Shown here in pieces: positions 13,514 to 53,174 of a stretch of DNA of 53,174 bases. A model generated the notes under the pieces. It saw nothing but the letters and a program-made list of their open reading frames with translations, was not told where the DNA came from and ran no database searches. Source of the DNA: Prorocentrum cordatum (taxonomy: Eukaryota). A program made the position numbers and the translations under genes. Within the stretch, counting starts at the first letter, position 1. The number at the start of each line of letters is the position of its first letter. The stretch lies in assembly GCA_963575745.1 (NCBI GenBank), contig CAUYUJ010000335.1:62001-115174 (forward strand). Direction: 5' to 3'.

Positions 13514-14285
13514 CACCCCTCGCGCAGATCGGCGGGGTCAGGGTCCAAAAACAAAGGGGATTTGCCACATTTCTGACATCCGGTGGCACCCCTCACGCAG
13601 ATCGGCGGGGTCAGGGTCCAAAAACAGAAGGGAATTTGCCACATTTCTGAAATTCGGTGACACACCCCATGCAGATCGGCGGGGTCAGGGTCCGAAAACA
13701 CATAGGATTTTCCGCATGTTTGAAATTCGGTGGCACCCCTCACGCAGATCGGCGGGGTCAGGGTTCAAAAACACATGGGATTTGCCGCATGTTTTAAATT
13801 CGGTGGCACCCCTGGCGCAGATCGGCGGGGTCAGGGTCCAAAGACACAAGGGATTTGCCACATTTCTGAAATTTCCTGGCACCCCTCACGCAGATCGGTG
13901 GGGTCAGGGTCCAACAACACTCGGAATTGGCTACATTTCTGAAATTCGGTGGCACCTCTCACGCAGATCGGCGGGGTCAGGGTCCAAAAACACATTGGAT
14001 TTTCCGCATGTTTGAAATTCGGGTGCACCCCTCACGCAGATCGGCGGGGTCAGGGTCCAACAACACAAAGGATGTGCCACATTTTTGCAATTCGGTGGCA
14101 CCTCTCACGCAGATCGGCGGGGTCAGGGTCCAAAAACACAAGGGATTTGAAACATTTCAAAAATTCGGTGGCACCCCTCACGCAGATCCGTAGGGTCAGG
14201 GTCCAAAAACAGAAGGGATTTGCCACATGTCTGAAATTCGGCGGCACCCCTCACGCAGATCGGCAGGGTCAGGGTCGAAAAACAA
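13514..14285. repeat. 73-bp minisatellite A, about 10.5 copies
   Basis: Unit CACCCCTCACGCAGATCGGCGGGGTCAGGGTCCAAAAACACAAGGGATTTGCCACATTTCTGAAATTCGGTGG; starts at 13514 and 13587 and continues at 73-74 bp spacing. Confidence 0.97.
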
Positions 14286-15132: not shown

Positions 15133-15790
15133 CCACGACACCCACGCCGACGACGACAGCGACAACGACGACGACGGCGCCGCCGACACCGACTACGACG
15201 ACACCGACGACGTCTCCAACGACTTCGACGACGACAACGACGACACCGACGACGACGACGACGACGTCAACGACGCCGACGACGACGACGACGGCGACTA
15301 CGACGACACCGATGACGTCTCCGACGACTTCGACGACGACTTCGACGACGACAACGACGCCGACGAAGACGACGACGACGTCGCCGACGAAGACGACGAC
15401 GAGGGAGGAGGAAGGACGACGACGACGACGACGGCGACAACCACGACAACGACGAGGGAGGAGGGAGGACGGCGACGACGCGAACGACGACGAAGGAGGA
15501 AGGACGGCGGCGCCGACTACGACAACGACGAGGGAGGAGGGAAGACGACGACGACAACGACGACGACGACGGCGACGAAATAGGAGGGACGACGACGAGA
15601 CGCCGACGACGGACGACGACGAGGGAGGAGGAAGGACGACCACGGCAACAACGACGACGGAAACGACCACGACGCCAAAGAGGACGACGACGACGAACAC
15701 GAGGAATGACAGAGGACGACGTAGGCGACGACGACGACGACGATGTGGGAGGAGGGAGGACGGCGACGACGACGAGAACGACGACGCAAG
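15133..15790. repeat. Degenerate (GAC)n microsatellite
   Basis: Direct reading of the sequence. Confidence 0.95.
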
Positions 15791-27077: not shown

Positions 27078-28007
27078 TACACTTCGTGCTCTTCGACCTC
27101 CCAGAACTCAATTCCCGGGCCACATGAATGCCCGGAGCCAACTGTAGGCCACTTCGTGCTCTTCGACTTCCCAGAACTCCACTCCCGGGCCACATTTTGG
27201 ATGCCCGGAGCCAACTATAAGCCACTTCGTGCTCTTCGAGTTCCCAGAACTCCACTCCCGGCCCACATTTTGAATGCCCGGAACCAACTGTAGGCCACTT
27301 CGTGCTCTTCGAGTTCCCAGAACTCCGTTCCCGGGCCACATTCTGAATGCCCGGAGCCAACTGTAGGCTACTTCGTGGTCTTCGAGTTCCCAGAACTCCA
27401 TTCCTGGGCCACAGTTTAAATGCCCGGAGCCAACTGTAGGCCACTTCGTGCTCTTCGAGTTCCCAGAACTCCACTCCTGGGCATGATTTTGAATGCCCGG
27501 AGCCAACTGCAGGCCACTTCGTGGTCTTCGAGTTCTCAGAACTCCATTCCTGGGCATGATTTTGAATGCCCGGAGCCAACTGCAGGCCACTTCGTGTTCT
27601 TCGAGTTCCCAGAACTCCACTCCCGGCCCACATTTTGAATGCCCGGAACCAACTGTAGGCCACTTCGTGCTCTTCGAGTTCCCAGAACTCCGTTCCCGGG
27701 CCACATTCTGAATGCCCGGAGCCAACTGTAGGCTACTTCGTGGTTTTCGAGTTCCCAGAACTCCATTCCTGGGCCACAGTTTAAATGCCCGGAGCCAACT
27801 GTAGGCCACTTCGTGCTCTTCGAGTTCCCAGAACTCCACTCCTGGGCATGATTTTGAATGCCCGGAGCCAACTGCAGGCCACTTCGTGGTCTTCGAGTTC
27901 TCAGAACTCCATTCCTGGGCATGATTTTGAATGCCCGGAGCCAACTGCAGGCCACTTCGTGTTCTTCGAGTTCCCAGAACTCCACTCCCGGGCCACATTT
28001 TGAATGC
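27078..28007. repeat. 73-bp minisatellite B, about 12.7 copies, with a 365-bp (5-unit) higher-order duplication
   Basis: ACTTCGTG at 27151, 27224, 27297 and onward. The pattern of variant units repeats at a 365-bp offset (near-identical ORFs at 27420 and 27785). Confidence 0.97.
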
Positions 28008-31849: not shown

Positions 31850-35362
<3,513 letters not shown>

Positions 35363-38954: not shown

Positions 38955-39947
38955 TCACCACGTGGACCACCACCTGCAGAGGCACCTAACAATCTCCGCA
39001 CTTTCGGCGGGTAACTGCAGCAGCACCAATGCGGCCGTGCTATCCTCAATGTAGATGCGCGCTGTTCGTGGGTTCTGCCATCGGCCTCGTACGATCGTCG
39101 CGTCCACGCTCTGGACCTTTGTGAAGTGCCACGAAACCCCCCCTCTCCGTAGGGAGTACGGCTGGAACCCTACGTGCTCAAGGCGGGTGAACTTCAGGAG
39201 AGCTTGGAATGCCCTCGAAAAGGCGCCCCCCCTCTGGCGGACGAGGGGGTCGTCGTCAGAAAGGTCGCACATGGCCCGCTGCAGCAAGGTCAGAATGACG
39301 CGGTCCACGAAGTGCACCGCCTCCCGGGCCCTCTTTCTCCCGGCAGTCTTGGTCGACTCCAATGCTATGAAGACCGTGTTGGACTCAGGGAAGAGCCGGA
39401 CATGGCGTTTCTCGAGCGACAAAAGCTCGGCAGTCCGAAGAAATGCAGTAAATCCAACCAGAAGCCCTGCGGCCAACCTCAAATCCCCCGCCTGGGCCGC
39501 AGCGGAGGCCAGAGCAGCCACAATATGCTTCGGGAACGGCGTGGCTCTAGTGGGCACGACTGTCGAATTCCAATTGTTGTAGAACAGCCAACTCGTGTTG
39601 AGGTGGTGCTTGCATTGTGGGAAGAAGCGCTGCAGGCCGCTCAGGAGGTGGCCGCAGAAGCCGATGGGCTCACCTTCCTGCCAACACTCGTTGATGAACT
39701 CAGACACAATGTGATCGAGTTCCGACAACGACGTGGGCAGGGCGAGGGACCTGGCTTGCAAGAAGAAGAAGAAGAAGGCGTTAACAGCTCGGCGGTATAC
39801 CTGGAACGCGCGCGGAGCGATGCCGACATAGCGCAGGTGCCGGCGAACCGGCCCACCAGGATTACGGGCGCGACGGCCCTGCTGACGAAGCACCGGCATT
39901 CCTCGAGGCAAAGTCGCTAAAGTTCCACGCAAAAACCGTCCAGGCAT
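38955..39947 (-). CDS. Tyrosine recombinase of the DIRS-like element
   Basis: Catalytic motifs FLRTAEL (R), KT (K), YSLRRGG (Y in place of H in HxxR), GRW (W) and RIYI (Y). ATG at 39947 or 39899; overlaps the 3' end of pol. Confidence 0.93.
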   Translation of the reverse strand: MPGRFLRGTLATLPRGMPVLRQQGRRARNPGGPVRRHLRYVGIAPRAFQVYRRAVNAFFFFFLQARSLALPTSLSELDHIVSEFINECWQEGEPIGFCGHLLSGLQRFFPQCKHHLNTSWLFYNNWNSTVVPTRATPFPKHIVAALASAAAQAGDLRLAAGLLVGFTAFLRTAELLSLEKRHVRLFPESNTVFIALESTKTAGRKRAREAVHFVDRVILTLLQRAMCDLSDDDPLVRQRGGAFSRAFQALLKFTRLEHVGFQPYSLRRGGVSWHFTKVQSVDATIVRGRWQNPRTARIYIEDSTAALVLLQLPAESAEIVRCLCRWWSTW

Positions 39948-42900
39948 AAAAAAGGCAATTATCGCATGCAAGTGATGCCGCCATGTGTTTGCGGCACACG
40001 CGGTTCAGCCGCTTAGAAGAAGAACGGCCTTTGGTGAGCACACCCGTCACGACCAGCGAGTCCAGGATGTGCAGGTAGCGCCGGGAGTGGTACATGATTG
40101 AAATGGCACGCCGCCTCAACCAGGTCCCCGCCGCGTGCGCCTCAAGGGTGTTGATGTGCTGCTCGTGCTGCCATCGCCATGACAGCACGGTCTTCCACTC
40201 CCACTCAAGAGCGGGGCACGGCACCCTAGCAGGGGGCGAATGGAAAGGATCGTCGACGATCAGCCTCACGTCAGTGCCCCGGTGGTCGCACTTGCGGAGC
40301 ATGAGCTTCAGATGTTCGATCTCCTGGCCCGGGGCCATGGTAGCCTCGAGCTCACGCACGGACGCGACCACGCGCTCCGAGACGCCCTTTTCGACGAACA
40401 TCTTCCCTGCTCGGGCGAGCCGGGCACGCAGCGCCTCCTCCCGCCTCGCAGGGTCCACCTCCCGGGGTGGCACCGCGGGTCGCGACAGCGCGCCGGCGAC
40501 GACCTCCGCGCAACTCTGGCACAGCGCGCCCGGGTACTCGTAGAAGTGGCACGGGTCCTTAGGCGGCACCGTGGGGCAGGAGCAGGGCCCGTCGCGATGG
40601 AGCATGGCATGGAGCTCGCGGCAGTTGTGAGCGAAGCAGGTGGCCCTCCGCGCGCCGCCGAAGCAACAGTAGGAGAGCTCAGAGTAAAATGCCCCCTCCT
40701 TCTCCTCTAGCTCCTTGGCCTGCGCGAAGTCCCAGAGCCAGCTGTCGCACGGGTTCTCGATGCACCAATGCTTCCCCTGCCCGTGGCGCTCCAAGGCACA
40801 AGCGAGGGCCTTCTTGCCCATCGCGTCGGATCGCCGCACCTCGAACGCGAGAGTGCGCGGGAGCCCAGGGATCCCAATGATGCGCCTGGCGTTCCGCACC
40901 CGGTCTGGCCCAGGAGCCCTCGACAAGAAGCGCCACTCGGGAGCAAAATGCTCCCAGGCAAGCGCCGTCTCGGCCTGCTCGGTGGTCAAAATCTCCTTGC
41001 CCTCCTGGGAAAAGAAATCGCGGCCCATAGCGTCGTCGAAGGGCCTCTGCACAGGAATGCCCCACTGCGCCACTGCCTGCGTCAGCGGGGCACGAGGGCA
41101 AGAGAACCGCTCTGCGAAACACGGGCAGCGTCCGCACTTCCCGCAGTTCTCTCGGTGGTCAGCCGCGCTGCGGGGGTCGCCGATCTGGGCGCCGCAAGGG
41201 GCCCGTATAGGGCTCTCGCCGGACTGGCGGTAGCTGGGCTGGCAAGCCGAACCCGCGGTAACGAACGGCCGGAACGACATCGCCACCGCAACTCCGCCGC
41301 CTGTGAGCGACGCGTCCGAGCACGAGACAATCCCATCGAGCGTGGCGCGTATGTTGGTGAAGGCGAGCGGGGCGAAGATGGTGAAGGACAGGACCGCGTC
41401 GAACGCGTCGTCCTTCGGCACCGCCGCCCCAGCCTCCAGCAACTTGATCTGCCAGAACACCTCCTGCAGCACCGCGTAGAGCGGCCCCCGAAACACCGGC
41501 GCGAAGCAAGCCTTCCCAGCCCAGTGCCGGAGCGCTCGCGCGCTCCACCGAGGCTGGGCCAGCAGCGCCAGGCCCAGCCAGACCAAGTCGGCCCCCTTCG
41601 AGGGCTGGAGCCCGAAGGTCCCGCGGGAGCTGTCCAGAAAGCCCCCTTGAAGGGATGCCGCCGTCGCCCCGATCAAGGATTTTCCCGTGTTCAGCGGGAG
41701 GCCGAGCTCGGAGCACACGTTGACGAAACGGGCGTGCTCCTCTGTCTCCCCCCCCATCTGGGCCTCGGCGAGAGCCCGGTCGACAACCCGGAGTCGGTCG
41801 TACGAGTCGAGGTAAAGGATGGACAAGTCGTCCTGCGGGGGTAGGCCCCTGCCCTTCTGCACCTCGGTGGCGGGGGAGACCCGCGCGAGCCCGAACGCAA
41901 GACGTCGGACAACCGACTGCATGATGGCGACGGCACTGTTCCAACCCATGGGCACGACGCACAAGGCGGGGCGCACCCACTCTTTCTCTGGCAGGCCCAT
42001 AGCGCTGCCAGAGTCGGGCAGAGTGAACAGGTTGAAGCAGCTCTCGAAGTCCTCGGAGTCGATGAGAACCTCTTCTCCCTCCTCCAAATGAAGGAGGGTG
42101 ACCTGCCCGACGTGCGGCAACTTGTCGTCGTCCCCCGTGATGCGGGTCAGGTAGTCGTTGATGGGGCAAAAGATGCTGATAAAGCGGGGGAGTTCCTGTC
42201 GCACTCCGTCCTTGTACTTGATCTTCTCGACGCCGCTGGCCCCGTTGTACACAGGCTGGCCGTCGACGCCGCGGAACACATCCTCCTCCCTCACTGGTTT
42301 CATCATGCCCCTTTGGAATGCCGCGGCCACCAAGTCAGCCCAGGCCCCCTGAGAAGCACGGACGTAACTCTTCCTAGCTGCCGCGGGCCAAAAGGCCCGG
42401 TCCAGGAGGTTCGAGCTGGGATCCACGACCTTCTCAAGCACCTCGCCCTCGAGGAACTTGGTAACGGACTGGATTGCCGCGGACCCCACTGCCGGCCATG
42501 CTGGGACGACCCTCCTTGGCGTGAGCGCCTCCATCTTGACAACCAGGCCCGAGGCCCCGTAGTCCACTGGAAGCGTCGTGAGCTTCTTCCTGAGGACCTT
42601 CAGCGACGGTGCCTGCCCAGCGGCGTCGGGCTGGCTGGACACGAATGCGACGACAGCCATCGCAACATGCCGGACCAGCCTGAGTTGAGGCTGCGACAGC
42701 CTCAGTGCCGGGCCCTTCCGAGGTGGCTCAGCGCCCGCTCCGAGATAATGGAAGTTGAGGGCGGACAAAATACAGCAGACCCACTGGCGGAGGCCGCCGC
42801 CCCATCGCCCCAGGGATGCCTCCTCGAACCCATGGCCCAAGACCTTCTCGGCAGAGAGCTCCCGGACGGCCTCGACCGCAATCGGCAGGATGTCTTGGGT

Positions 42901-43656
42901 GGCTCCGCGAGACCCTCGGGCAGAGGGTGGTGCAGCGCGCCCTAAAGAACGCGGCAGGTCGCCCAAGGGAGTCGCGAGCTCGTCCCAGTGCGCATCCAGC
43001 CAGATGAAGGCATCGAAGAGCCCTGGCCGAGAGGCGAGGGCCACCTCGAGGTCTGCCCGCCAGCTCTCCCTGGTCACGTGGCCCTTGCGCGGCGGCGGCG
43101 AAAGTCTCGGGAGCGAGCCCTCCCGGTAAATATCAAGCATCGGGCGTTCTGGCGACTCCAGGCCCCCACGCGGCTCTGAGCCCGACGTAGGCTCGAAGGA
43201 AGCCGCTGGCTCCTCTGGCGGCGCCCGCGCGTCGCAGAGTCGCACGACGCGCCGGCGTCCACCCAGCGAGGGGCTTCCCGCAGGCTTCAAAACGGCAGCC
43301 TCGCGCCCCCTGCACGCTCCGCCGCTGGGGGACCGCGCATCGCGGGATCCAACCCGTGAGTGGGGCGGTCTGGCGACTGCTGTGGACGGGGGGCGGCGCC
43401 GCGGCGCCTCCCGAGGGGCAGCGGTCAGCCGCCGTTGGGAGGCTTCCCTTTGCCGCCCTTTCCGCTCTTGGTCTTGCCGCCACCCTTCTTCCCCTTCTGG
43501 GAGGCTGCGTTCTCGTCGTGGCCCCGGCGCCACGGCTGCGCGCCCACGATCTCCTGGTTGGTCCGCGCCTCCCTCGCGACGGCGACGCCCTCGTCGCGCT
43601 CCAGGAGGGGAGCCCCTTCCTCGGGCATGAGCTCGAGGAGCTGCGCGCGCGTCCAA
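39862..43656 (-). CDS. Pol: reverse transcriptase plus RNase H interrupted by a DNMT-like domain (first ATG at 43140)
   Basis: RT motifs SEDFESCF, PMGW, YLDSYD and GLPLNTGKS. RNase H acidic residues SDAS, HINTLE, LDSLV and NFSDFASR. The insert contains ERFSC, HFAPEW, CIENP and CCFGGARRAT. Confidence 0.88.
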   Translation of the reverse strand: MDARAAPRAHARGRGSPPGARRGRRRREGGADQPGDRGRAAVAPGPRRERSLPEGEEGWRQDQERKGRQREASQRRLTAAPREAPRRRPPSTAVARPPHSRVGSRDARSPSGGACRGREAAVLKPAGSPSLGGRRRVVRLCDARAPPEEPAASFEPTSGSEPRGGLESPERPMLDIYREGSLPRLSPPPRKGHVTRESWRADLEVALASRPGLFDAFIWLDAHWDELATPLGDLPRSLGRAAPPSARGSRGATQDILPIAVEAVRELSAEKVLGHGFEEASLGRWGGGLRQWVCCILSALNFHYLGAGAEPPRKGPALRLSQPQLRLVRHVAMAVVAFVSSQPDAAGQAPSLKVLRKKLTTLPVDYGASGLVVKMEALTPRRVVPAWPAVGSAAIQSVTKFLEGEVLEKVVDPSSNLLDRAFWPAAARKSYVRASQGAWADLVAAAFQRGMMKPVREEDVFRGVDGQPVYNGASGVEKIKYKDGVRQELPRFISIFCPINDYLTRITGDDDKLPHVGQVTLLHLEEGEEVLIDSEDFESCFNLFTLPDSGSAMGLPEKEWVRPALCVVPMGWNSAVAIMQSVVRRLAFGLARVSPATEVQKGRGLPPQDDLSILYLDSYDRLRVVDRALAEAQMGGETEEHARFVNVCSELGLPLNTGKSLIGATAASLQGGFLDSSRGTFGLQPSKGADLVWLGLALLAQPRWSARALRHWAGKACFAPVFRGPLYAVLQEVFWQIKLLEAGAAVPKDDAFDAVLSFTIFAPLAFTNIRATLDGIVSCSDASLTGGGVAVAMSFRPFVTAGSACQPSYRQSGESPIRAPCGAQIGDPRSAADHRENCGKCGRCPCFAERFSCPRAPLTQAVAQWGIPVQRPFDDAMGRDFFSQEGKEILTTEQAETALAWEHFAPEWRFLSRAPGPDRVRNARRIIGIPGLPRTLAFEVRRSDAMGKKALACALERHGQGKHWCIENPCDSWLWDFAQAKELEEKEGAFYSELSYCCFGGARRATCFAHNCRELHAMLHRDGPCSCPTVPPKDPCHFYEYPGALCQSCAEVVAGALSRPAVPPREVDPARREEALRARLARAGKMFVEKGVSERVVASVRELEATMAPGQEIEHLKLMLRKCDHRGTDVRLIVDDPFHSPPARVPCPALEWEWKTVLSWRWQHEQHINTLEAHAAGTWLRRRAISIMYHSRRYLHILDSLVVTGVLTKGRSSSKRLNRVCRKHMAASLACDNCLFYAWTVFAWNFSDFASRNAGASSAGPSRP

Positions 43657-45069
43657 GCGCCGTCGTGCAGCGCCTTGTCGATCGCCTTGATCCTCTGGGC
43701 CACAACGTCGGCAGCCTCCTCGGGCCTCTGCGTCGCCAGGAGGTCCAGGATGAGGGACAGCGTCCGCAACTCCCTCCTGTCGCGAAGCGCCATGCGCGTG
43801 GCCAGGGTCGGAACCATCACCGTCAAAAAGTACGATGTCGCTGCCGGAGGCGTCTGATTCAGATCGCCCAGGCTGCCCAGCTGGGCATGCACGGCCCCCC
43901 CCTCCCTGCTGACGCCGGCTGCCATCTTGAGCAGGAGCCGCGCGGCCAGCCGTCCTGGATGACGCTGGGAATAGGACACCAACTGGAGCTGCTTGCTCCC
44001 GTTGGCGGAGGAGGGGGCCTCGCGAAAACCCGGCCTCGACCCTGAGCGTGAACGACGCCTCCGCCTCGAACGCGAGCGCGACTCCGAAGAGGAGAACGCC
44101 GCCAACGGGCCAGCACCGTAGGGGCCCCGGTCGCCGCCTCGACGGCGACGACGTTCGCGGCCCCCTCGGCTGCGGGAGCGGTCGCGGTCGCGGTCGCGAG
44201 CGTGCCGGGGGGTAGGGGAACGGGCGCGCCGACCCTCGGGCGCATCCACAAGCGGCGGCGCCGACGCACCTCCAGCTTGGTCAGCGTCCCCACCTCCAGC
44301 AGAGCGGCCCCCGGCAGCACGACCACCGCGCCTCGGGGACCGGGCAGTCCCCCCAAACAGGCCAGGCCTGCTAGGGCCACCTCGGCCCCTTCCGAGGGTG
44401 ACCCGAGCGTTCGCGCCTCCTCCCGCGAGGCTCATCAGCAAGGTCACGACGTAGATTCGCAAGCTGGTCTGCGACAGGAGCTGCCGCAGCCGCACCGCGG
44501 GAGGGAGATCCCTCTGGCTGCCGCTGCTGCCGCGGCTGCTCGACAAGCTCTCCGTCGAAGAACTCGCCGCGGTCTCCGCCTGCGGGGACTCCCCCAGGCG
44601 GGTAAGCCTCCCGGCGCCCCCCATCAAGGTTGCCGAGGTACTCCTCCACACGCTCGGCGGCAACACCCCTACCAGCCCAACCGATCGCACCCGTGGCCAG
44701 CGCCGCCCTGGGGACCGCCCTGACACGGGCGAAATGCAGAGCGTAATCGGCACCAGCCTTGACGCTCTGGCAGGTGGCCGCCTCACCTCGGCAAAGGTGG
44801 TACCAGGCTGGGCTGGGCGGCTTGTCCGCCGACTCCCGCACGTACCAGTCGTAGTACTCGTCGCTCGCGGCAATGTACACGGCCTCGAGCCATCGAACCC
44901 TCGCCGAGGCGGTAGCCGTGCTAGTCACCGCGAGCAGCATCGTGCCCTGCTCGTCGCCCGCGTCGTCCGAGCACTGGACCTCCACGATCTGGCCGGAGCG
45001 GAGCTCGAAGTGATCGAAAAAGTCTGGGTCGGCCACGGCGTCGAACCATGGCCCGACTGGGGGCGGCAT
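43425..45069 (-). pseudogene. Gag-like ORF1, apparently split by one frameshift near 44400-44445
   Basis: Protein-like N-terminal half in ORF 45114-44371 (ATG at 45069). Protein-like C-terminal half (RS-rich, then a helical region and a KG-rich tail) in ORF 44873-43425. It is the first ORF after A1. Confidence 0.7.
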
Positions 45070-45696: not shown

Positions 45697-46783
45697 TTCC
45701 TCCTCCTCCTCCTCCTCCTCCTCCTCCTCCGCCTCTCCTCCTCGGCCTGCATCGTGCTCCTGCTCTCCTTCCCGTTCCTGCTCCTCCTCCTCCGCCTCCT
45801 CCCTCCTCCTCTTCCTTGAGTCCTCCCCGCCTCCTCCTCCCTCCTCTCCTCCTCCTCCTCCTCCTCCGCCTACTCCTTCCTCCTTCTTCCTCCTCCCTCA
45901 TCCTCCTCCTCCTCCTCCTCCTCATCCGCCTCGTCCTCCCTCTCCTCTCCTCGTCCTCCCTCCTCCTCCTCCGCCTCCTTGTCCTCCTCCTCCTCCTCCT
46001 CCTCCTCCCCCCTCTCCTCCCCCCCACCCGTCCTCCTCCTCCTCATCCTCCTCGCCCCTCCTCCTACTGTTCCTGCCCTCCTCTCCTCCTCCTCCGCTCC
46101 TCCTTCCCCTCGTCCTCCGTTTCCGCCTTCCTTTCCTCTCCCTCCTCCCTCCTCCTCCTCCTCCTCGCCGTCCGCTCCTCCTCCTCCTCCTCCTCCTCCT
46201 CCTTCCTCCTCCTCCTCCTCCCCTCCTCCCTCCTCCTCTCCTCCTCCTCCCCCTGCTACTCCTGCTCCTGCCCTGCCTCCTGCTCCTCCTCCTCGCCTCC
46301 TCTTCTTTCCTCCTCCTCCTCCTCCTCCTCCTCCTCCCTCCTCCTCATTCCTTATTCATCCTTCGTCCTTCGTCGTTTCCTCCTTCCTCCTCCCTTCTTC
46401 CTCCTTTCCTCCTCCTCCTCCTCCTCCTCCTCCTCCTCCTCGTCCTCCTCCTCCGCCTCCTCCTCCTCCTCCTCCTACTCCACCTCATCCGTTCTCCTCC
46501 CTCCGCCCTGCTGTTCCTCCTCCCCCTCGTCATCCAACAGATCCTCCTCTATCTACTCCTCCTCTTAATCTTATTAGTATTCGTCGTAGTAGTAAGATTA
46601 CTATTAGTAGTACTGTTACCAGTATTATCATCAACATTCGTGTTACCATTAATCGTAGCATTACTCGTCGTATTATTGTGATTATTACTACGATTAGTAT
46701 TACTAACAGTCTTATTGGTATGACTATCCGTAATAGTAACAATTTTACTATTAGTCGTAATAGTAGTAGTAGTAGTAGTAGTA

Positions 46784-46830
<47 letters not shown>
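45697..46830. repeat. (CCT)n tract followed by degenerate (TAG/TAT)n and pure (CGT)n
   Basis: Direct reading of the sequence. Confidence 0.95.
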
Positions 46831-46831
<1 letters not shown>

Positions 46832-46851
46832 CGTAGCCATTTTGGCTCAAG
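46830..46851 (+). other. Exact full-length dinoflagellate spliced-leader exon (DinoSL) at the LINE 5' end
   Basis: TCCGTAGCCATTTTGGCTCAAG matches the consensus DCCGTAGCCATTTTGGCTCAAG at 22/22. It is not followed by a GT donor. Confidence 0.97.
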
Positions 46852-47008
46852 TCCGTAGCGTTTCGCTCAGGACAGAGTCTCTTGGCGTGGGGGAGCGACG
46901 GCCCCCGACAGCTCAGGTCGCCCCCGCGGCGGCACATTTCCATTCACTGTACTGCGGTATCAGCCCGCAACTTTTGCGTACCTACACCACGGCGGGCACG
47001 GCCCGCGG

Positions 47009-48193
47009 ATGTCTCCCGATGGTGCACGTGTGCCTTTGGTCTCGGGTCGCGGACAGCAGCGGCGTGCCTGGGCCCAGCCGTGGAACTGCAAGTCGTGCTG
47101 GAACAATCAGGGAGAGAGCTGGTGGAACCGTGCCGATCGACTTCATTGCAGCAAGTGCAACCTGCATAAGTCGGTCTGCTACGGTGGCCCTCGTTCCTTG
47201 CCCACAGTCCCCGCCGTGCATGCGCAGCAGCGTGCAGGCTCGGGCAGCAGTGGCAAGGTCGAGCAGCAGCTCAAGCAATGCCAGGCAGAGTTGGAGAAGC
47301 TCCGTACGCAGCTCGCTCGAGGGCCCCCGCCATCACCTCCAGACCCACGGGATGCAATGGAGGTGGACGAGGGGGGGGCCGACGGCGATCTCAAGCAGCA
47401 GCTGGCGGAGCTCAACTCGCAGATCGAAGCTATCAAGGACGTTCAATGTAAGGAGGTGCAGCAGGCTTGTCAGCAGATGCGCGAGCGCCAGGCGCGCTTG
47501 CGGCAGCGTGTCTCTGCGGCCAAGCCTCTGGACACACGCCTCAAGGAGCTCTCTTTCACGCATCAGCGGCTTTGTAAGAAGGCGGCGAGGCAAGAAGAGA
47601 ACATTCGTGAGCTGGAGGAGAAGGTCAGGGTCGCCCAGGAGGCGGTGGAGCGTGCCAACAAGGAGCTCAGCGCCACAAAGAGCGAGATGGTCGAGATTGA
47701 GCAGCAGAGGCGCGAGTTGGTCGTCGCCTGCCCTCAGCCACCGCAACCCGAGCAAGGGCAGGCGCAGTCGCTGCAGCAAGTCATCGGCGGGCTCCACGAC
47801 GTCTCCGTGGGCCAGCTGGGTGAGCTGCTGCAGGGCTTCGGAGGCTCGGTGCAGTCGGCGCAGAAGCTGTATGATGCGGTCCAGGAGGTGCGTGAGGCGG
47901 AGCGCGTGTACCGCGAGAAGAGGGAGCAGGAGGCAGCAGCAGCTCGCTCAGCAGCCGAGGCGGCTGAAGCGGAGCGCTCCTCGCCGGCGGCAGCGAGTGC
48001 GCCTGCGCCTGCGGCCAGCCCAGCGGCCAGCTGGATCCCAGACTTCTCGGCGGCCGATGCGGACACGCTGCGTGAGTTCCTGGAGACCTGCAATGTTCAA
48101 GTGCCCGAGGATGAGGACGATCTTCGGGAAGCGGCCAAGCGTGCAGGTGAGCAGCTCGACAGCTTTGCCAAGAAAGCCAGAACGAGGACGTAG
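47009..48193 (+). CDS. LINE ORF1p (RanBP2-like C4 zinc finger plus long coiled coil), 394 aa
   Basis: WNCKSC..WWN....HCSKC followed by E/Q/K/L-rich heptads; lies directly upstream of ORF2. Confidence 0.85.
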   Translation: MSPDGARVPLVSGRGQQRRAWAQPWNCKSCWNNQGESWWNRADRLHCSKCNLHKSVCYGGPRSLPTVPAVHAQQRAGSGSSGKVEQQLKQCQAELEKLRTQLARGPPPSPPDPRDAMEVDEGGADGDLKQQLAELNSQIEAIKDVQCKEVQQACQQMRERQARLRQRVSAAKPLDTRLKELSFTHQRLCKKAARQEENIRELEEKVRVAQEAVERANKELSATKSEMVEIEQQRRELVVACPQPPQPEQGQAQSLQQVIGGLHDVSVGQLGELLQGFGGSVQSAQKLYDAVQEVREAERVYREKREQEAAAARSAAEAAEAERSSPAAASAPAPAASPAASWIPDFSAADADTLREFLETCNVQVPEDEDDLREAAKRAGEQLDSFAKKARTRT

Positions 48194-48239
48194 GCTTGCC
48201 ATTCCTTTGGTGATCAAGCTGTTTCTCATTTTTTGTGCC

Positions 48240-51200
48240 ATGGTTAGAGTTGTTACTGCTAACACTACGAGCCACGGGCCAATGGTCCGCATGCTGGAGT
48301 CCGACATCACGTCGCTGGCATTTGATAAGGAGTTGACGGTGTTCTGTATTCAGGAGCACCATCTCAGTGACAAGCTGGCCGACCACCAATCGAGGGTGGG
48401 GGCAGCAGGGTACCACGGGGTCTGGGCCAAGGCGCTGGACACGGACAACGGAGGGACGACGGGTGGGGTGGCTGTTCTATGTCCCAAGCGGGTGCAGATC
48501 ACGGCGCCCCCACGTTGCGAGGATGGGCTGCTGGTCCCAGGCAGAGCAGTAGCAGGCCATGTTCACAGTGCTGTCCGAGGCGGCTTCGTTGTGGTATCCG
48601 TCTATTTGTACGTGGACGACCAGATGGGGGAGAGGAATGTCGCGATCCTGGTGGATGTGGCGGCCTACCTCTTCCGTCTCAACGAGATGGGGATCGAGTG
48701 GGTGGTTGGAGGTGACTTTCAGATGGAGCCTGACAAGTTGATGTCGTGGGCCGCCGCATTCGGGGGCGTGGTGTCCGCCACAGCGGATCCTACATGCGTG
48801 CAGGCGGTGCCAGGCTCCACGATCGACTTCTTCGTGATAAGTGCTAACTTAGCGATCAGAACCACCCCAGCTGTTGTGCTCGAGGATGTGTGTCTCGCTC
48901 CCCACAAACCGGTTTCCTTCGGCATTCGAGGGGCTGATGTTAAGCTGTGGTGCAGAGTTGCATGCCAGCCCAAGAGGATGCCAGTAGTTGCTAAGGCAGG
49001 ATGTGCGCGTTTCCCCAGGCGGTGGGCGCGTTTTCGTCAGCAGGTAGCCCAGGCCCGAGATGAAGAAGATCTCAGTGTCAGGTGGGACGAGTTTCTTACG
49101 AAAGTTGAGCGTGAGCTTCTGGACCGACACGATATTGTAGGGCCGCAACGTTCTTTCTACGAGGGCTACGCTGGCAAGCATGATGTGACATGGAAGGAGC
49201 TCAGTTTCGTGCCAAAGAAGCGTGCGGTCCAGCTGCAGCCTGTTCAGGCAGCGTGGGCCACGGCGGCCAGGTGGGCCCGCCACCTGCGATCGGTCAGCCA
49301 GGCCCTGCACACGTTCGCGCCGAGGCTGGAGGTGGACGACGGCGACCAGACAAGGCGTTTCCGACGTATGGCCAAGGTGCTGGTGGATGCCGACAGGTTT
49401 TGCGACCGTATCACCAAGGTGGAGTGGGTGCACAAGGAGCTGGACCCCCTCAGTAGTGCTCTTTTTAAGGCTGGCCTGTCGGCCCTGGCCGACCCTTTCT
49501 TTCAGGATTTGCGTGACCGCATCTTGGAGCGAGCATCGCTTCAGGAGTCGGCCCATCTTGCCAGCAAGTCAGAGGACTGGCAACGATGGGTTCGAGAGAG
49601 CTTCTCAGGAGGAGCCCGCCAGGCGCACAGGTACTCTAGAGCTCGAGCTGTCCAGGAGGTCATTGGAGCCACCCAGAGAGCCCAGCCCTTTGAGCTTTCT
49701 GATGAGGTTGTCTCGGACTGGGGGCTTATTTGGGCTACTCATGGGTGTACTAGGCCCGAGATCCCTGGGGACGCCGATTCTTGGGAAGAACTCCCAGTGC
49801 TTTCGGTAGCTGACCTGAGAGCTGTCATTTTGAAGTTCCCTGTGTCCACGGCAGTGGGGTGTTGTAAAATACATCCTCGCTCGCTTCTGTACCTTTCGGA
49901 CCAGGCCCTTGAGGCCTTCGCATCATTGCTGCATCAATGCGAACGCTGTCTCTGTTGGCCAAAAGACAGGATAGTGAGCAGGCTATTCCGTCTTGCCAAG
50001 CCAGACGGGGGGCATCGTTTGATCGCGCTGCTAGACTCTTTCATCAGAGTATGGGCGCGAGCCCGCAGGCCTATCAGCGAGGCCTGGGAGCGTGCCAATA
50101 GGACGGAGGAGTTCTGGGGTAGCGGGAAGGGGAGGAGCGCGAGCGATTCGGCCTTCGATTTGAACCTTTCCGCTGAAGTTGCCAAAGCTCAGGGCCTGCA
50201 CTGGATCAGCGTGCTCTTAGACATGGCCAAATGTTATGAAATGATCAAGCTTTCGGCTCTTTTTGACGTTTATCGGAGAGTGGGTTTCCCCCTTCGATTA
50301 GGTTGGATGTTGATTCAAAGCTATGTGGCGCCCCGTAGGATCGACGCGTGCGGGAGCTTGAGCGACAGCTATGTTTCTTTTCAGGGCATTTTAGCAGGCT
50401 GTGCTCACGCCTGCGCCAACATGCTTGCAGTGCTGCTGGACCCTGTCAAAAAGATTGTCGCTAGGTATCCGTCTATTAAGCCGAGAGCCCTCATGGATGA
50501 TATATCCCTTCAATGGTGTGGCGAGACCGCCAAAGGAGGGGAGCTGGTCTTTGCTGCGACGCGAGAGCTGTGCCACCTTCTAGCCCCGATTGGTCTCCTT
50601 TTGCAGCCAAACAAGTCTGGGTTCCTCGCGAGTACGACAGCGGCAGAAAAAGAAGTTCGGTTGTCGGCTCGCATGATAGGGTTTCACAGCAAGGCTCATC
50701 TTCGCAACTTGGGCCATGATTTGCACGGTAGGCGTGTAATTCGCAAAGTTGAAAAAGCCAGGGTCGCCAAGCTCCAGGGGCGTCGGGCCAAACTTCGGGT
50801 CCTGAAGAAAGCCGCGGGGCCTAAGGTGGCCATGCTCTGGCGGACTGGGCTCATGCCCTGTGGGGCCCACGGGGCCGCGGTGTCTGGGGTCTCGGATCAG
50901 GTCCTCAGAAGCCTGCGTGCAGCGGCGGCCGAGCTTGCAGGAGCTAGAGGCCGCATGCACGTCACGGCCTTTCTAAGTACGCATCGGGACGAGAACTATG
51001 ACCCATTAGTCGATGCTACAGTGCCTCTTGTTTTTCGATACTGCTGCTGGATCTGGGACCGTCGTGCTAGTGATGTAGATCTTTGGCATGCGTGGAACGC
51101 GGCGGCCTCACGGCTAGCCAACAGACCGCTCTGGAGAGATGTTCGAGGGCCCGTGGGAGCCGTCTTTTTGAGCCTGTTGCGCGTGGGATGGGCCCTTGTG

Positions 51201-52862
51201 GGACCGACCCATATTCGGACCGACCAGGGAGTTGCGTTGTCGCTTTGCCACGTTTCGCCCTGGGATTTAAAACGCCAGCTCATCGAGGGTATTAACAGAG
51301 CGCAGATGATTCAGCTCGTGTCGGCCATCCCCGAAGCTTCTGGCGAGGAGATCGTTTGGGGTCGTGCGCTGCGGGTCGCGGTGAACTCCGCGAGGGAACC
51401 TAAGAGGCGCGCGACCTTGAAGGCCTTGCTAGCAGGGGGGCTCTGGCCGCCAGCTCGGAAGTTTAGTCATGGATTGGCCGATTCGAACCTTTGTCAGTTT
51501 TGCAAGCAGCAAATAGGCACGTTCGGCCATCACTGGTATGAATGCGAGGAGCTCTGGCGCCAGGGTGATGCCCCAGAGGCAGGGCCCGCATTGCCAGAGG
51601 AAAGTTTCAAGCGAAGGCAGCTGCTCAAGGACTCGGCCCGAGGAATTCCCCCCGACTTCGATTCGGTTGAGTTGGTTTACGGTTTGCCGTTTCAGCCTGT
51701 GGTTTTGGAGCCAGTCCCGAGCGTGCTGCCTGTTTTGTCTTGGGGGGCCACCCACCTTCCTTGGGGAAAACGGGTCTACACCGACGGCTCTGGCCACGCC
51801 AACGGAGTCCCCGAGATGGCCCGCTGCGGCTGGGCGGTAGTCGAGATGTCGGCCCGTGGATGGCCGATCAGGGCCCTGTATGGAGGCCTCGCGGGACGGT
51901 GCCAGACGGTGCCGCGAGCCGAACGACAGGCCCTCTTGGAAGCTTTGAAGGTGGCCCCCCCTGGTGCTGAATTGGTCTCGGACCACCTCTCGGCTGTGAC
52001 CGAGGGCAACAGCTGGGATCCAGCCCTGGCGACGGGAGCGTTCAAGCACGCGTCAGTCTGGAGACGAATTCTTAAAATCGTCGGAGCGAAGGAACGACCT
52101 TCCTTCCGTTGGACCCCCGCCCATGGAGATCTGGACGAGATTTTGGAGGGTGAGTGGTCGTGTGATGGGGCTGGTGTTTCGCGTGAGTCCGATCTCCTTG
52201 GGAACGGGTGGGCGGACTTTTTCGCGAAGCTGGGGGCTGCTCAGATCCGAGCGGCCGAGAGTGCAGTCGAGGCAGTCAGAGTTGGCCTCAGCGAGGCCAA
52301 GCTGAATTTTGCTTTTATTTCGCGGGCGGCCCAATTCGTGGCCGCGTCTTCGGTCCCCGAGCCGAGGCCGCCTGCCAGGCCGAGAAACACCACGGCCCCT
52401 CCTCTGGCCCTGATGGCCCACGACCTCGAAATGATTCCGTCTGGAGGTGCGCGGTGCACATGGTGCCACAGTATCGCGAAGTCGGCAGGAGGCCGTGCCA
52501 GGCTTGAGCAGCCAAGCGCGGTCTGCAGGCCAACCGACTTGCACTTGTTTTTAGCCGCTGTCCGACATCACCGCCTCGGGGGCGTCCTCCCTAGGGCGCG
52601 AGGTGAGGCGGTGCGTCGAGCGTGGCAGGCCCTCGGCTTCGAGGGAGAGCAGGGAGAGGCTGTCGCCCCGCCGTCGGTCTTCCATTTCTTGCAGCACCAG
52701 GTCGCGGCTGTTGGCCGCTACCTGATCTGTCACCGTTGTGGGGCCCACGCGCTGATTGAGGCGCCGAGCTGGCGTGCCCTGCTTCAGGCCTGCACAGGAC
52801 GCATGTCCAAGGACCAGCGGTGGTTCCTGGACCGTGTCAGTGCAGGGCGCGAGCCCCGATAG
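48240..52862 (+). CDS. LINE ORF2p: AP endonuclease, reverse transcriptase, CCHC-type zinc finger and RNase H (1540 aa)
   Basis: APE: TAN, IQEHH, GGVA, SVY, GDFQ, TIDFF, PHKPV. RT: KPDGGHRLIAL, LLDMAKCYE, GILAGC, LMDD, RNLG. Zinc finger: CQFC..GTFGHHWYEC. RNase H: YTDGS, VPRAE, SD, WTPAH, GNGWADFFAK. Confidence 0.95.
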   Translation: MVRVVTANTTSHGPMVRMLESDITSLAFDKELTVFCIQEHHLSDKLADHQSRVGAAGYHGVWAKALDTDNGGTTGGVAVLCPKRVQITAPPRCEDGLLVPGRAVAGHVHSAVRGGFVVVSVYLYVDDQMGERNVAILVDVAAYLFRLNEMGIEWVVGGDFQMEPDKLMSWAAAFGGVVSATADPTCVQAVPGSTIDFFVISANLAIRTTPAVVLEDVCLAPHKPVSFGIRGADVKLWCRVACQPKRMPVVAKAGCARFPRRWARFRQQVAQARDEEDLSVRWDEFLTKVERELLDRHDIVGPQRSFYEGYAGKHDVTWKELSFVPKKRAVQLQPVQAAWATAARWARHLRSVSQALHTFAPRLEVDDGDQTRRFRRMAKVLVDADRFCDRITKVEWVHKELDPLSSALFKAGLSALADPFFQDLRDRILERASLQESAHLASKSEDWQRWVRESFSGGARQAHRYSRARAVQEVIGATQRAQPFELSDEVVSDWGLIWATHGCTRPEIPGDADSWEELPVLSVADLRAVILKFPVSTAVGCCKIHPRSLLYLSDQALEAFASLLHQCERCLCWPKDRIVSRLFRLAKPDGGHRLIALLDSFIRVWARARRPISEAWERANRTEEFWGSGKGRSASDSAFDLNLSAEVAKAQGLHWISVLLDMAKCYEMIKLSALFDVYRRVGFPLRLGWMLIQSYVAPRRIDACGSLSDSYVSFQGILAGCAHACANMLAVLLDPVKKIVARYPSIKPRALMDDISLQWCGETAKGGELVFAATRELCHLLAPIGLLLQPNKSGFLASTTAAEKEVRLSARMIGFHSKAHLRNLGHDLHGRRVIRKVEKARVAKLQGRRAKLRVLKKAAGPKVAMLWRTGLMPCGAHGAAVSGVSDQVLRSLRAAAAELAGARGRMHVTAFLSTHRDENYDPLVDATVPLVFRYCCWIWDRRASDVDLWHAWNAAASRLANRPLWRDVRGPVGAVFLSLLRVGWALVGPTHIRTDQGVALSLCHVSPWDLKRQLIEGINRAQMIQLVSAIPEASGEEIVWGRALRVAVNSAREPKRRATLKALLAGGLWPPARKFSHGLADSNLCQFCKQQIGTFGHHWYECEELWRQGDAPEAGPALPEESFKRRQLLKDSARGIPPDFDSVELVYGLPFQPVVLEPVPSVLPVLSWGATHLPWGKRVYTDGSGHANGVPEMARCGWAVVEMSARGWPIRALYGGLAGRCQTVPRAERQALLEALKVAPPGAELVSDHLSAVTEGNSWDPALATGAFKHASVWRRILKIVGAKERPSFRWTPAHGDLDEILEGEWSCDGAGVSRESDLLGNGWADFFAKLGAAQIRAAESAVEAVRVGLSEAKLNFAFISRAAQFVAASSVPEPRPPARPRNTTAPPLALMAHDLEMIPSGGARCTWCHSIAKSAGGRARLEQPSAVCRPTDLHLFLAAVRHHRLGGVLPRARGEAVRRAWQALGFEGEQGEAVAPPSVFHFLQHQVAAVGRYLICHRCGAHALIEAPSWRALLQACTGRMSKDQRWFLDRVSAGREPR

Positions 52863-53054
52863 GGGCGAGCAAGGGTGGGCCGACCCTGGGGGTTAGCCCA
52901 CCGCCTGCTCGCCCCTATCTGGGGCTCGTTCTTTCCTTGCGGGCGGTGCTGCGCTGAGCACCCGCCCTTTCCTTTTCGTTGAGAGGCATGCCTCTCGGTG
53001 CATCGCGGCCAGCGCCCGAACTGACGAGCGCTCGCATCGGCGTGGAACGTGGAA

Positions 53055-53070
53055 CGTCGTCGTCGTCGTC

Positions 53071-53168
<98 letters not shown>

Positions 53169-53174
53169 CGTAGT
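53055..53174. repeat. (CGT)6 followed by (AGT)n microsatellite
   Basis: Direct reading of the sequence. Confidence 0.97.

Follow-up and report, generated by a model that had tools for sequence, protein, structure and literature searches.

We analysed a 53,174-nucleotide (nt) stretch of Prorocentrum cordatum DNA (the window; contig CAUYUJ010000335.1, positions 62,001 to 115,174 of the forward strand), which holds near its right-hand end a long interspersed nuclear element (LINE) that begins with a perfect copy of the spliced leader that dinoflagellates use (DinoSL, or SL). According to passages of two papers (PMC7245778, PMC5585692), the SL is added to dinoflagellate nuclear mRNAs only by trans-splicing, and an SL in DNA marks a reverse-transcribed mature RNA. 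The perfect SL is followed by a 157-nt leader (46852-47008), which itself starts with a degenerate relic SL, and then by two open reading frames (ORFs) separated by a 46-nt spacer (Table 1). The leader and the two intact ORFs agree with the initial annotation of this locus. Neither long terminal repeats (LTRs) around the element nor a second copy of it within the 53-kb window was found. The element appears structurally complete, its frames are open, and it has probably been active recently.

Table 1. Coordinates of the SL-headed LINE and its flanks, in window positions.
Feature	Position	Strand	Evidence or remark
5' flank: (GTA)n, then perfect (GTC)16	46740..46829	+	Tandem Repeats Finder (TRF) array 46784-46831, overlapping SL positions 1-2
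DinoSL, 22 nt, perfect, D=T; 5' terminus of the element	46830..46851	+	sequence match and shuffles
Degenerate full-length relic SL, TCCGTAGCGTTTCGCTCAGG	46852..46871	+	alignment shuffles; word depth in contigs of run X1
Rest of the 157-nt 5' leader	46872..47008	+	related subfamilies diverge within this segment
ORF1, 394 aa, stop TAG	47009..48193	+	open reading frame; no Pfam match
ORF2, 1540 aa, ATG at 48240	48240..52862	+	open reading frame; domain and colinearity evidence
3' untranslated region (UTR), 193 nt, hairpin at its start, terminal doubled GTGGAAC	52863..53055	+	fold and sequence
3' flank: (GTC)5, then (GTA)n up to the window end	53056..53174	+	sequence, TRF

The 21-nt SL core CCGTAGCCATTTTGGCTCAAG matches the window once, at 46831-46851 on the forward strand, and in none of 100 shuffled sequences; the T that precedes it completes the 22-nt leader. 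The initial annotation had placed the exact DinoSL as the first non-microsatellite bases of the element. The match is indeed exact over 22 nt, but the GTC repeat runs in phase into SL positions 1-2 (T, C), which leaves 20 nt that are unambiguously non-microsatellite. Microhomology of this type is common at LINE 5' junctions. A looser search of the window with the 15-nt 3' part of the SL returned two additional sites with three mismatches each; the resulting three matches compare with 1.68 expected and were equalled or exceeded in 17 of 100 shuffles, which is within chance. The perfect SL at the junction supports the earlier proposal that an SL-trans-spliced LINE RNA was reverse transcribed over its full length to give this copy.

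At the other end, the element terminates at about 53055, after the doubled GTGGAAC, rather than at 53054 as first annotated, and its sequence contains no poly(A). The same GTC/GTA microsatellite lies on both sides, and since both flanks are one (GTC)n repeat, the limits of a target-site duplication cannot be told. Compared with its shuffles, the 3' UTR folds better (z = -2.7). A near-perfect 52-nt hairpin (52863-52914) directly follows the ORF2 stop codon and is a candidate 3' recognition element of the reverse transcriptase. Scanned against Rfam at E<=1, the segment 46500-53174 returned four weak hairpin-type matches, all within 52849-52928, which resemble microRNA precursors and score well under the gathering thresholds. 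At the 5' end the same scan found no hepatitis delta virus (HDV)-like ribozyme or other Rfam family, in line with the initial annotation, although a divergent ribozyme could have escaped such a scan.

ORF1 carries an N-terminal zinc-finger-like CX2C...CX2C motif (WNCKSCW...CSKC), and its middle part is long, helical and coiled-coil-like. ORF2 shows, in order, an apurinic/apyrimidinic endonuclease (APE)-type domain at about 48336-48878, a reverse transcriptase (RT) at about 49995-50645, a Cys/His motif, and an RNase H at about 51774-52127. In Pfam, RVT_1 scores 27.9 bits (E 2.2e-6), slightly below its 29.6-bit cut-off, and Exo_endo_phos (18.3 bits, E 0.002) and RNase_H (21.2 bits, E 3.5e-4) are likewise sub-threshold. 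Full-length colinear relatives of ORF2 bear Exo_endo_phos, RVT_1 and RNase_H, and one also bears zf-RVT. Exo_endo_phos exceeds its cut-off in P0017, P0018, P0022, P0026 and P0029 and in L152, a contig described below; RVT_1 and RNase_H pass theirs in P0022 and L152, where they align to the matching regions of ORF2. P0022 is colinear with ORF2 at 26% identity (E 3e-80). Because the domains of these colinear relatives pass the cut-offs, we count ORF2 as encoding APE, RT and RNase H, and the element is, judged from its sequence, an APE-type LINE with RNase H located C-terminal to the RT. An exhaustive HMMER search points to a large family: it retrieved 4916 representative clusters at E<=1e-3, of which 1820 reach E<=1e-10 and 370 reach E<=1e-30. 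Five of the ten best hits carry names, all of them Prorocentrum cordatum, at 34-39% identity to the query. A word-based protein search gave two matches only, and a sequence search of the PDB gave none.

The element belongs to a family whose other copies are visible in independent data. DNA-type Logan contigs from four public sequencing runs, each from a different study, were aligned to the element at >=88% identity, with the repeat at 46800-46840 left out. Run X1 contributed 144 contigs distributed over the whole element, 45 of them at >=99% identity, 45 at 95-99%, 43 at 90-95% and 11 below 90%; the family is therefore multi-copy and of mixed age. In the same run, word depth reached 316 at 46867-46869, within the relic, and was 82 at 46876-46881, 42 at 46920 and 26 at 46970, with about 25-60 in most bins of the body. 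The head formed by SL and relic is thus some 4-10 times deeper than the body, an abundance to be read with the proviso that only contigs with a conserved head could align. This gradient is opposite to what LINEs usually show, namely 5' ends as the scarcest part. Contigs match through 46871, 46895, 46908 or 46914 and then diverge; past 46871 the continuation in X1 is, by eye, about 60% identical to the window leader and looks like a diverged homologous leader, not unrelated sequence. From the depth gradient it follows that the SL 3' half and the relic are common, letter for letter, to several subfamilies with diverged leaders and bodies.

Short contigs of a different study (X6) bridge 46841-46885 and join the 3' half of the SL, by way of the relic, to the leader, and the depth in X1 and X3 covers the same passage. 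For the junction proposed in the initial annotation, other studies' contigs thus confirm the inner portion, while 46800-46840 falls outside their coverage.

SL-headed LINEs were also found in other dinoflagellate DNA. A scan of the GTDB prokaryote genomes for the perfect 21-nt SL yielded 20 stretches with 21 SL occurrences, on eukaryote-like contigs mis-binned into metagenome-assembled genomes (MAGs). Seven of the 21 read SL|GTAC... and represent SL RNA genes. Among the other 14, two (L131, L137) are too short downstream to judge, and two of the remaining 12 are LINE 5' ends (L133 and L136). In L133, whose full contig is L152, an (AGAGAC/GA)n repeat is followed by the SL at 117-137, a 93-nt leader and a 370-aa ORF1 with a RanBP-type zinc ribbon (E 1.6e-7). 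Its similarity to the window ORF1 is insignificant (best E 0.54), the common feature being architecture only. The ORF2 of L152 has Exo_endo_phos, RVT_1 and RNase_H matches that each pass the Pfam cut-off, and is colinear with the window ORF2 at 25% identity over 1343 aligned positions (E 2e-30). After about 30 nt of 3' UTR and A6, (GA)n resumes; this element is complete. An additional 686-aa ORF with no Pfam match lies between its ORF1 and ORF2 (1696-3756 of L152). L136 (GC content 43%) has a unique, non-repeat flank, the 22-nt SL ACCGTAGCCATTTTGGCTCAAG (D=A), a 96-nt leader, ORF1, and an ORF2 with an APE domain whose frame runs past the contig end; no similarity to the window LINE or to L133 was detectable, and it appears to represent another clade.

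The expectation that other full-length copies begin with the SL is thus borne out, both by the head being the most abundant and most conserved part of the window family and by the perfect SLs of L133 and L136. The expectation of exactly one SL per copy fails for the window family, which has a perfect SL plus a degenerate full-length relic. Because at least three dinoflagellate LINE lineages, deeply diverged from one another, have the SL head, it appears to be a regular property that recurs in full-length LINEs across dinoflagellates, not the accident of one copy.

Further scans added no other such element. The JGI metagenomes, searched for the 20-nt relic, gave only L001, a chance match in a bacterial-looking contig, and the SL-relic junction was found in no stretch of the genome-contig scan. 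The IMG/VR stretches with a perfect SL (119, in 135 distinct contexts) encode no relative of the window, L133 or L136 ORFs, and an IMG/VR protein-pattern scan gave 432 pattern matches and no confirmed case. L159 was considered as an SL-headed LINE and rejected, as its SL, with one mismatch, precedes a non-LINE ORF. L150 and L151, from the MAGs of the GTDB scan, are RT-bearing dinoflagellate-like contigs with a frame open from end to end and no visible 5' end.

The SL could in principle belong to the target instead of the element, either because the LINE inserts site-specifically into SL RNA genes or because it landed by chance beside an older relic SL, or it could stem from an assembly or cDNA chimera. 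LINEs inserting into SL RNA genes do exist in trypanosomatids and nematodes: SLACS, CRE1/2 and CZAR in the former and NeSL-1 in C. elegans are site-specific elements inside SL RNA genes with a restriction-like endonuclease. They resemble the window element in being non-LTR retrotransposons with SL sequence on their 5' side. In those elements, however, the SL is target DNA, whereas the LINE described here inserts into microsatellites, has the SL as a part of itself and encodes an N-terminal endonuclease of the APE type, not a restriction-like one. The aligned contigs leave out the microsatellite-to-SL junction itself, which leaves some room for an artefact. Against this, both complete elements (window and L152) are embedded in one simple repeat that runs on both sides and is not SL-gene sequence, and nothing like the SL|GTAC... 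of the true SL genes (seven occurrences) follows the element. Moreover, the three LINEs show three different upstream flanks, and the SL-relic-leader sequence is contiguous and multi-copy in other studies' contigs. A LINE specific for SL RNA genes was accordingly rejected on the GTC/GTA flanks, the lack of such SL-gene sequence after the element and the lack of a C-terminal restriction-like endonuclease. We regard a target-derived or artefactual SL as largely excluded and this whole class of explanations as highly improbable.

The relic behind the perfect SL bears on how the head is maintained. It was overlooked in the initial annotation. It occupies the first 20 nt of the leader, begins at SL position 1, retains SL positions 1-8 and no longer contains the ATTTTGG Sm-like motif. 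Its local alignment to the SL scores 11, a value reached in 3 of 5000 shuffles. After the SLs of L133 and L136, no relic stands above chance (4712 and 1545 of 5000 shuffles, respectively), and the reading of these bases as very old relics was rejected on that ground. Truncated relics of the CCATT type follow the SL in three of the 12 non-LINE contexts (L130, L131, L135), compared with none of the three LINEs. As passages of PMC12014239 and PMC5585692 describe it, the usual relic lacks the first 7 nt, since splicing there takes the AG of SL positions 6-7 as its acceptor again. Whereas the usual relic of retrogenes is thus of the 15-nt CCATTTTGGCTCAAG type, the sole relic of the window is full length, which would require that an AG directly in front of a complete DNA-encoded SL once served as acceptor. 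In one earlier cycle, this acceptor might have been, for example, the TAG of a GTA repeat (...GTAG|), and such an event would have fixed one full-length relic behind the new SL.

We propose the following life cycle for this LINE. Its RNA would gain the 22-nt SL by trans-splicing, as every dinoflagellate nuclear mRNA does, and target-primed reverse transcription reaching the extreme 5' end would make the SL the first 22 bases of the DNA copy. That copy would then be transcribed from outside by read-through, and the ...CTCAAG end of the DNA-encoded SL would act as 3' splice acceptor. A new capped SL would substitute exactly for the old one, so that the 5' end would stay constant and neither an internal promoter nor a ribozyme would be needed. 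We infer the trans-splicing of the LINE RNA, the reuse of the terminal AG and the read-through transcription from DNA sequence. We consider it probable that the element is an intact two-ORF non-LTR retrotransposon whose RNA is trans-spliced, whose SL is copied by target-primed reverse transcription and whose terminal AG is reused each cycle; re-splicing at that AG in every cycle is, taken by itself, plausible but unproven. Reuse of the terminal AG, as the initial annotation had proposed, is the best explanation because ladders of relics are absent, and regular use of an internal or flanking AG over many rounds would build such ladders, as happens in some retrogenes.

The uniform head could also be a passive tag, if expression were confined to one or a few master copies whose upstream flank supplies a fixed acceptor, and the SLs of their daughters were dead marks that are never re-spliced. 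LINEs are well known to follow master-copy dynamics, all of the family shows a uniform head, and the full-length relic means that splicing has at least once used an acceptor lying upstream of a complete SL. The same head is nevertheless joined to several diverged leaders, which calls for successive or parallel sources that all kept it. L133/L152, at 25% ORF2 identity, and L136, with none detectable, each carry a single perfect SL and no ladder, and in a long succession of lineages each new master would itself be an SL-bearing daughter. On balance, we find this explanation unlikely.

Another role for the DNA-encoded SL would be that of a portable core promoter acting through its TTT(T/G) box, with a basal promoter held in the LINE leader. 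Relict DinoSLs have been proposed to supply TTT(T/G), with conservation strongest at -50 to -100 relative to the start codon, in a passage of Song et al. 2017 (PMC5585692), and in the LINEs described here the SL precedes the ORF1 start codon by about 95-180 nt. A TATA-like box, however, would start transcription downstream of itself; the RNA would then contain neither SL nor relic, and a downstream AG would have to receive a new SL. Such a promoter cannot regenerate the SL-plus-relic-plus-leader arrangement found in many copies, and the relic has no TTTTGG motif. We hold a promoter function of this sort to be quite improbable.

Several observations weigh against the renewal of the SL through its terminal AG. 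Trans-splicing and the choice of acceptor are read from DNA alone (eight runs are listed, none on record as RNA), and the sample of three LINEs is small. The ORFs of all three copies are open, and these copies are likely young, so that perfect SLs would be expected even without renewal, and a single fixed master locus could equally give uniform heads within one family. The alignment gap at 46800-46840 covers the 5' flanks of the other copies together with the initial 11 nt of the SLs that head them. In retrogenes the AG inside the SL (positions 6-7) is often used, and its avoidance by the LINEs would need an explanation. Finally, the relic is identical across many copies although the next 30 nt differ, for which decay of a dead relic offers no explanation; its conservation may reflect an acceptor context, a protein-binding site or ascertainment through the alignment threshold.

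Retrogenes of dinoflagellates offer the closest parallel. Their relict SLs were reportedly described by Slamovits and Keeling in 2008 as a mark of 'mRNA recycling'. In passages of Song et al. 2017 (PMC5585692) and PMC12014239, they likewise consist of DinoSL in DNA that derives from reverse-transcribed trans-spliced RNA, with repeated cycles leaving relics behind the new SL. Retrogenes, however, come from host mRNA without an RT or endonuclease of its own, whereas the window unit encodes its own APE, RT and RNase H. In further contrast to retrogenes, the window SL is complete, perfect and the very terminus of the element, and two of the three LINEs have no relic. The source of the RT behind dinoflagellate retrogenes is stated as unknown in the consulted passages of the literature, one review favours Ty1/copia, and a passage of another paper proposes LINE-mediated integration of RNA-virus genes beside relict SLs. 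Among the SL occurrences outside SL genes with at least 30 nt upstream, four of 12 adjoin a simple repeat, a count weakened by the tendency of short-read contigs to stop in repeats: L124 (TCA)10, L133 (GA)n, L135 (GACA)6 and, in L121, a GT/GC-rich tract that is imperfect. L133 is the one LINE among the four, and we see here only a hint that LINEs and SL-tagged retrogenes use a common integration machinery.

Microsatellite targets are known from the R1-clade LINEs Waldo, Mino, Kibi and Koshi. The window element and L152 are like them in inserting into a simple repeat, a likeness that concerns the target; the target specificity is deduced from these two complete insertions, and the flank of L136 is not a repeat. 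That microsatellite-targeting LINEs exist is also said in general terms in a passage of PMC4640811.

With regard to the 5' end, the nearest systems are LINEs with HDV-like ribozymes, namely R2 and L1Tc with its Pr77/L1TcRz (passages of PMC3185411 and PMC3383444), which are also promoter-poor and obtain a defined 5' end from a longer, host-driven transcript. In contrast to R2 and L1Tc, the agent proposed here is host SL trans-splicing, which would also donate the cap, and the 5' tag would be copied into DNA and reused as acceptor. Transposable element (TE) RNAs can use SL trans-splicing in Hydra, where about 30% of TE Iso-Seq reads carry the host SL (PMC12220107); the passage concerned does not report genomic copies that start with the SL or recycling of the SL. 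A search of the full-text literature, with few subscription journals and no supplements, found no description of a LINE with DinoSL as its genomic 5' terminus. The passages retrieved from PMC8045281, PMC3229502, PMC11453091, PMC3942190, PMC6050394, PMC10666404, PMC10235124 and 10.1101/783902 likewise describe no SL-headed LINE.

Outside the LINE, the window is rich in repeats and has an overall GC content of 60%. Simple repeats include (GTA)n of about 1.1 kb at 189-1323, (TCC)n at 45698-46528 and (ACG)n at 15144-15786, and longer tandem arrays are formed by 73-nt units at 13514-14284 and 27080-28007 and by a 107-nt array at 33663-35139. On the reverse strand, 39862-44280 holds a 1472-codon open frame (P0001) that lacks any Pfam match at E<=0.01 and does not resemble the LINE; it could be either a further mobile element or, in DNA of 60% GC, a spurious frame.

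The scans brought up further genomic SLs. GTDB species-representative prokaryote MAGs contain nuclear contigs from dinoflagellates that carry SL-tagged genes, SL RNA genes and LINEs (L121, L130 and L135 in one MAG, G002; L133, L136, L125 and L129 in others), a contamination that could mislead gene-content analyses of the affected MAGs. In L128 (6960-7080, reverse strand), a lone SL, next to which no retroposed body could be recognised, lies between two copies of the 19-nt TTTTGCTTGCAGGCGTGAG, which resembles a pyrimidine tract plus CAG acceptor; this SL may be a retrocopy inserted beside its parent's 5' end. In IMG/VR, the perfect DinoSL is DNA-encoded mostly on AT-rich giant-virus MAG contigs (L002-L120; for example L012, L025, L052 and L107). 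There it directly precedes gene 5' UTRs, with the ATG about 20-100 nt downstream, and conserved AT-rich motifs (for example AAATCAATTTTTTATTTTTTATTTTTAAATATAAATTTTA or ...TTATTATTATTTTACTAAACCA) stand in front of it. The core TCAATTTT upstream of the viral SLs resembles the mimivirus early-promoter motif in reverse. It looks as if dinoflagellate giant viruses hard-code the host leader behind a viral promoter; a brief literature search found no paper on a giant-virus-encoded DinoSL.

Every LINE faces the problem that its RNA must start at the first base of the element, as the promoter is otherwise lost on copying, and the known solutions are internal promoters and 5' ribozymes. If true, a DNA-copied SL that is reused as trans-splice acceptor would be a third solution, limited to organisms with SL trans-splicing, and would explain the success of LINEs in genomes transcribed as long read-through units. 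We put forward only tentatively, as a possible but somewhat doubtful extension, that a group of dinoflagellate LINEs without promoter or ribozyme lives on SL trans-splicing, with a functional relic and a self-renewing acceptor that gives each generation a translatable RNA, capped and full length, and that it is the microsatellite-seeking source of RT for the thousands of SL-tagged retrogenes of dinoflagellates. These LINEs offer concrete candidates for the enzyme behind dinoflagellate retrogenes. SL-primed long-read cDNA should capture those that are active, and retrogene counts based on upstream SLs will include retrotransposon copies. The occurrence of three LINE lineages that start with the SL suggests that these elements rely on the leader splicing of their host for the 5' ends of their RNAs.

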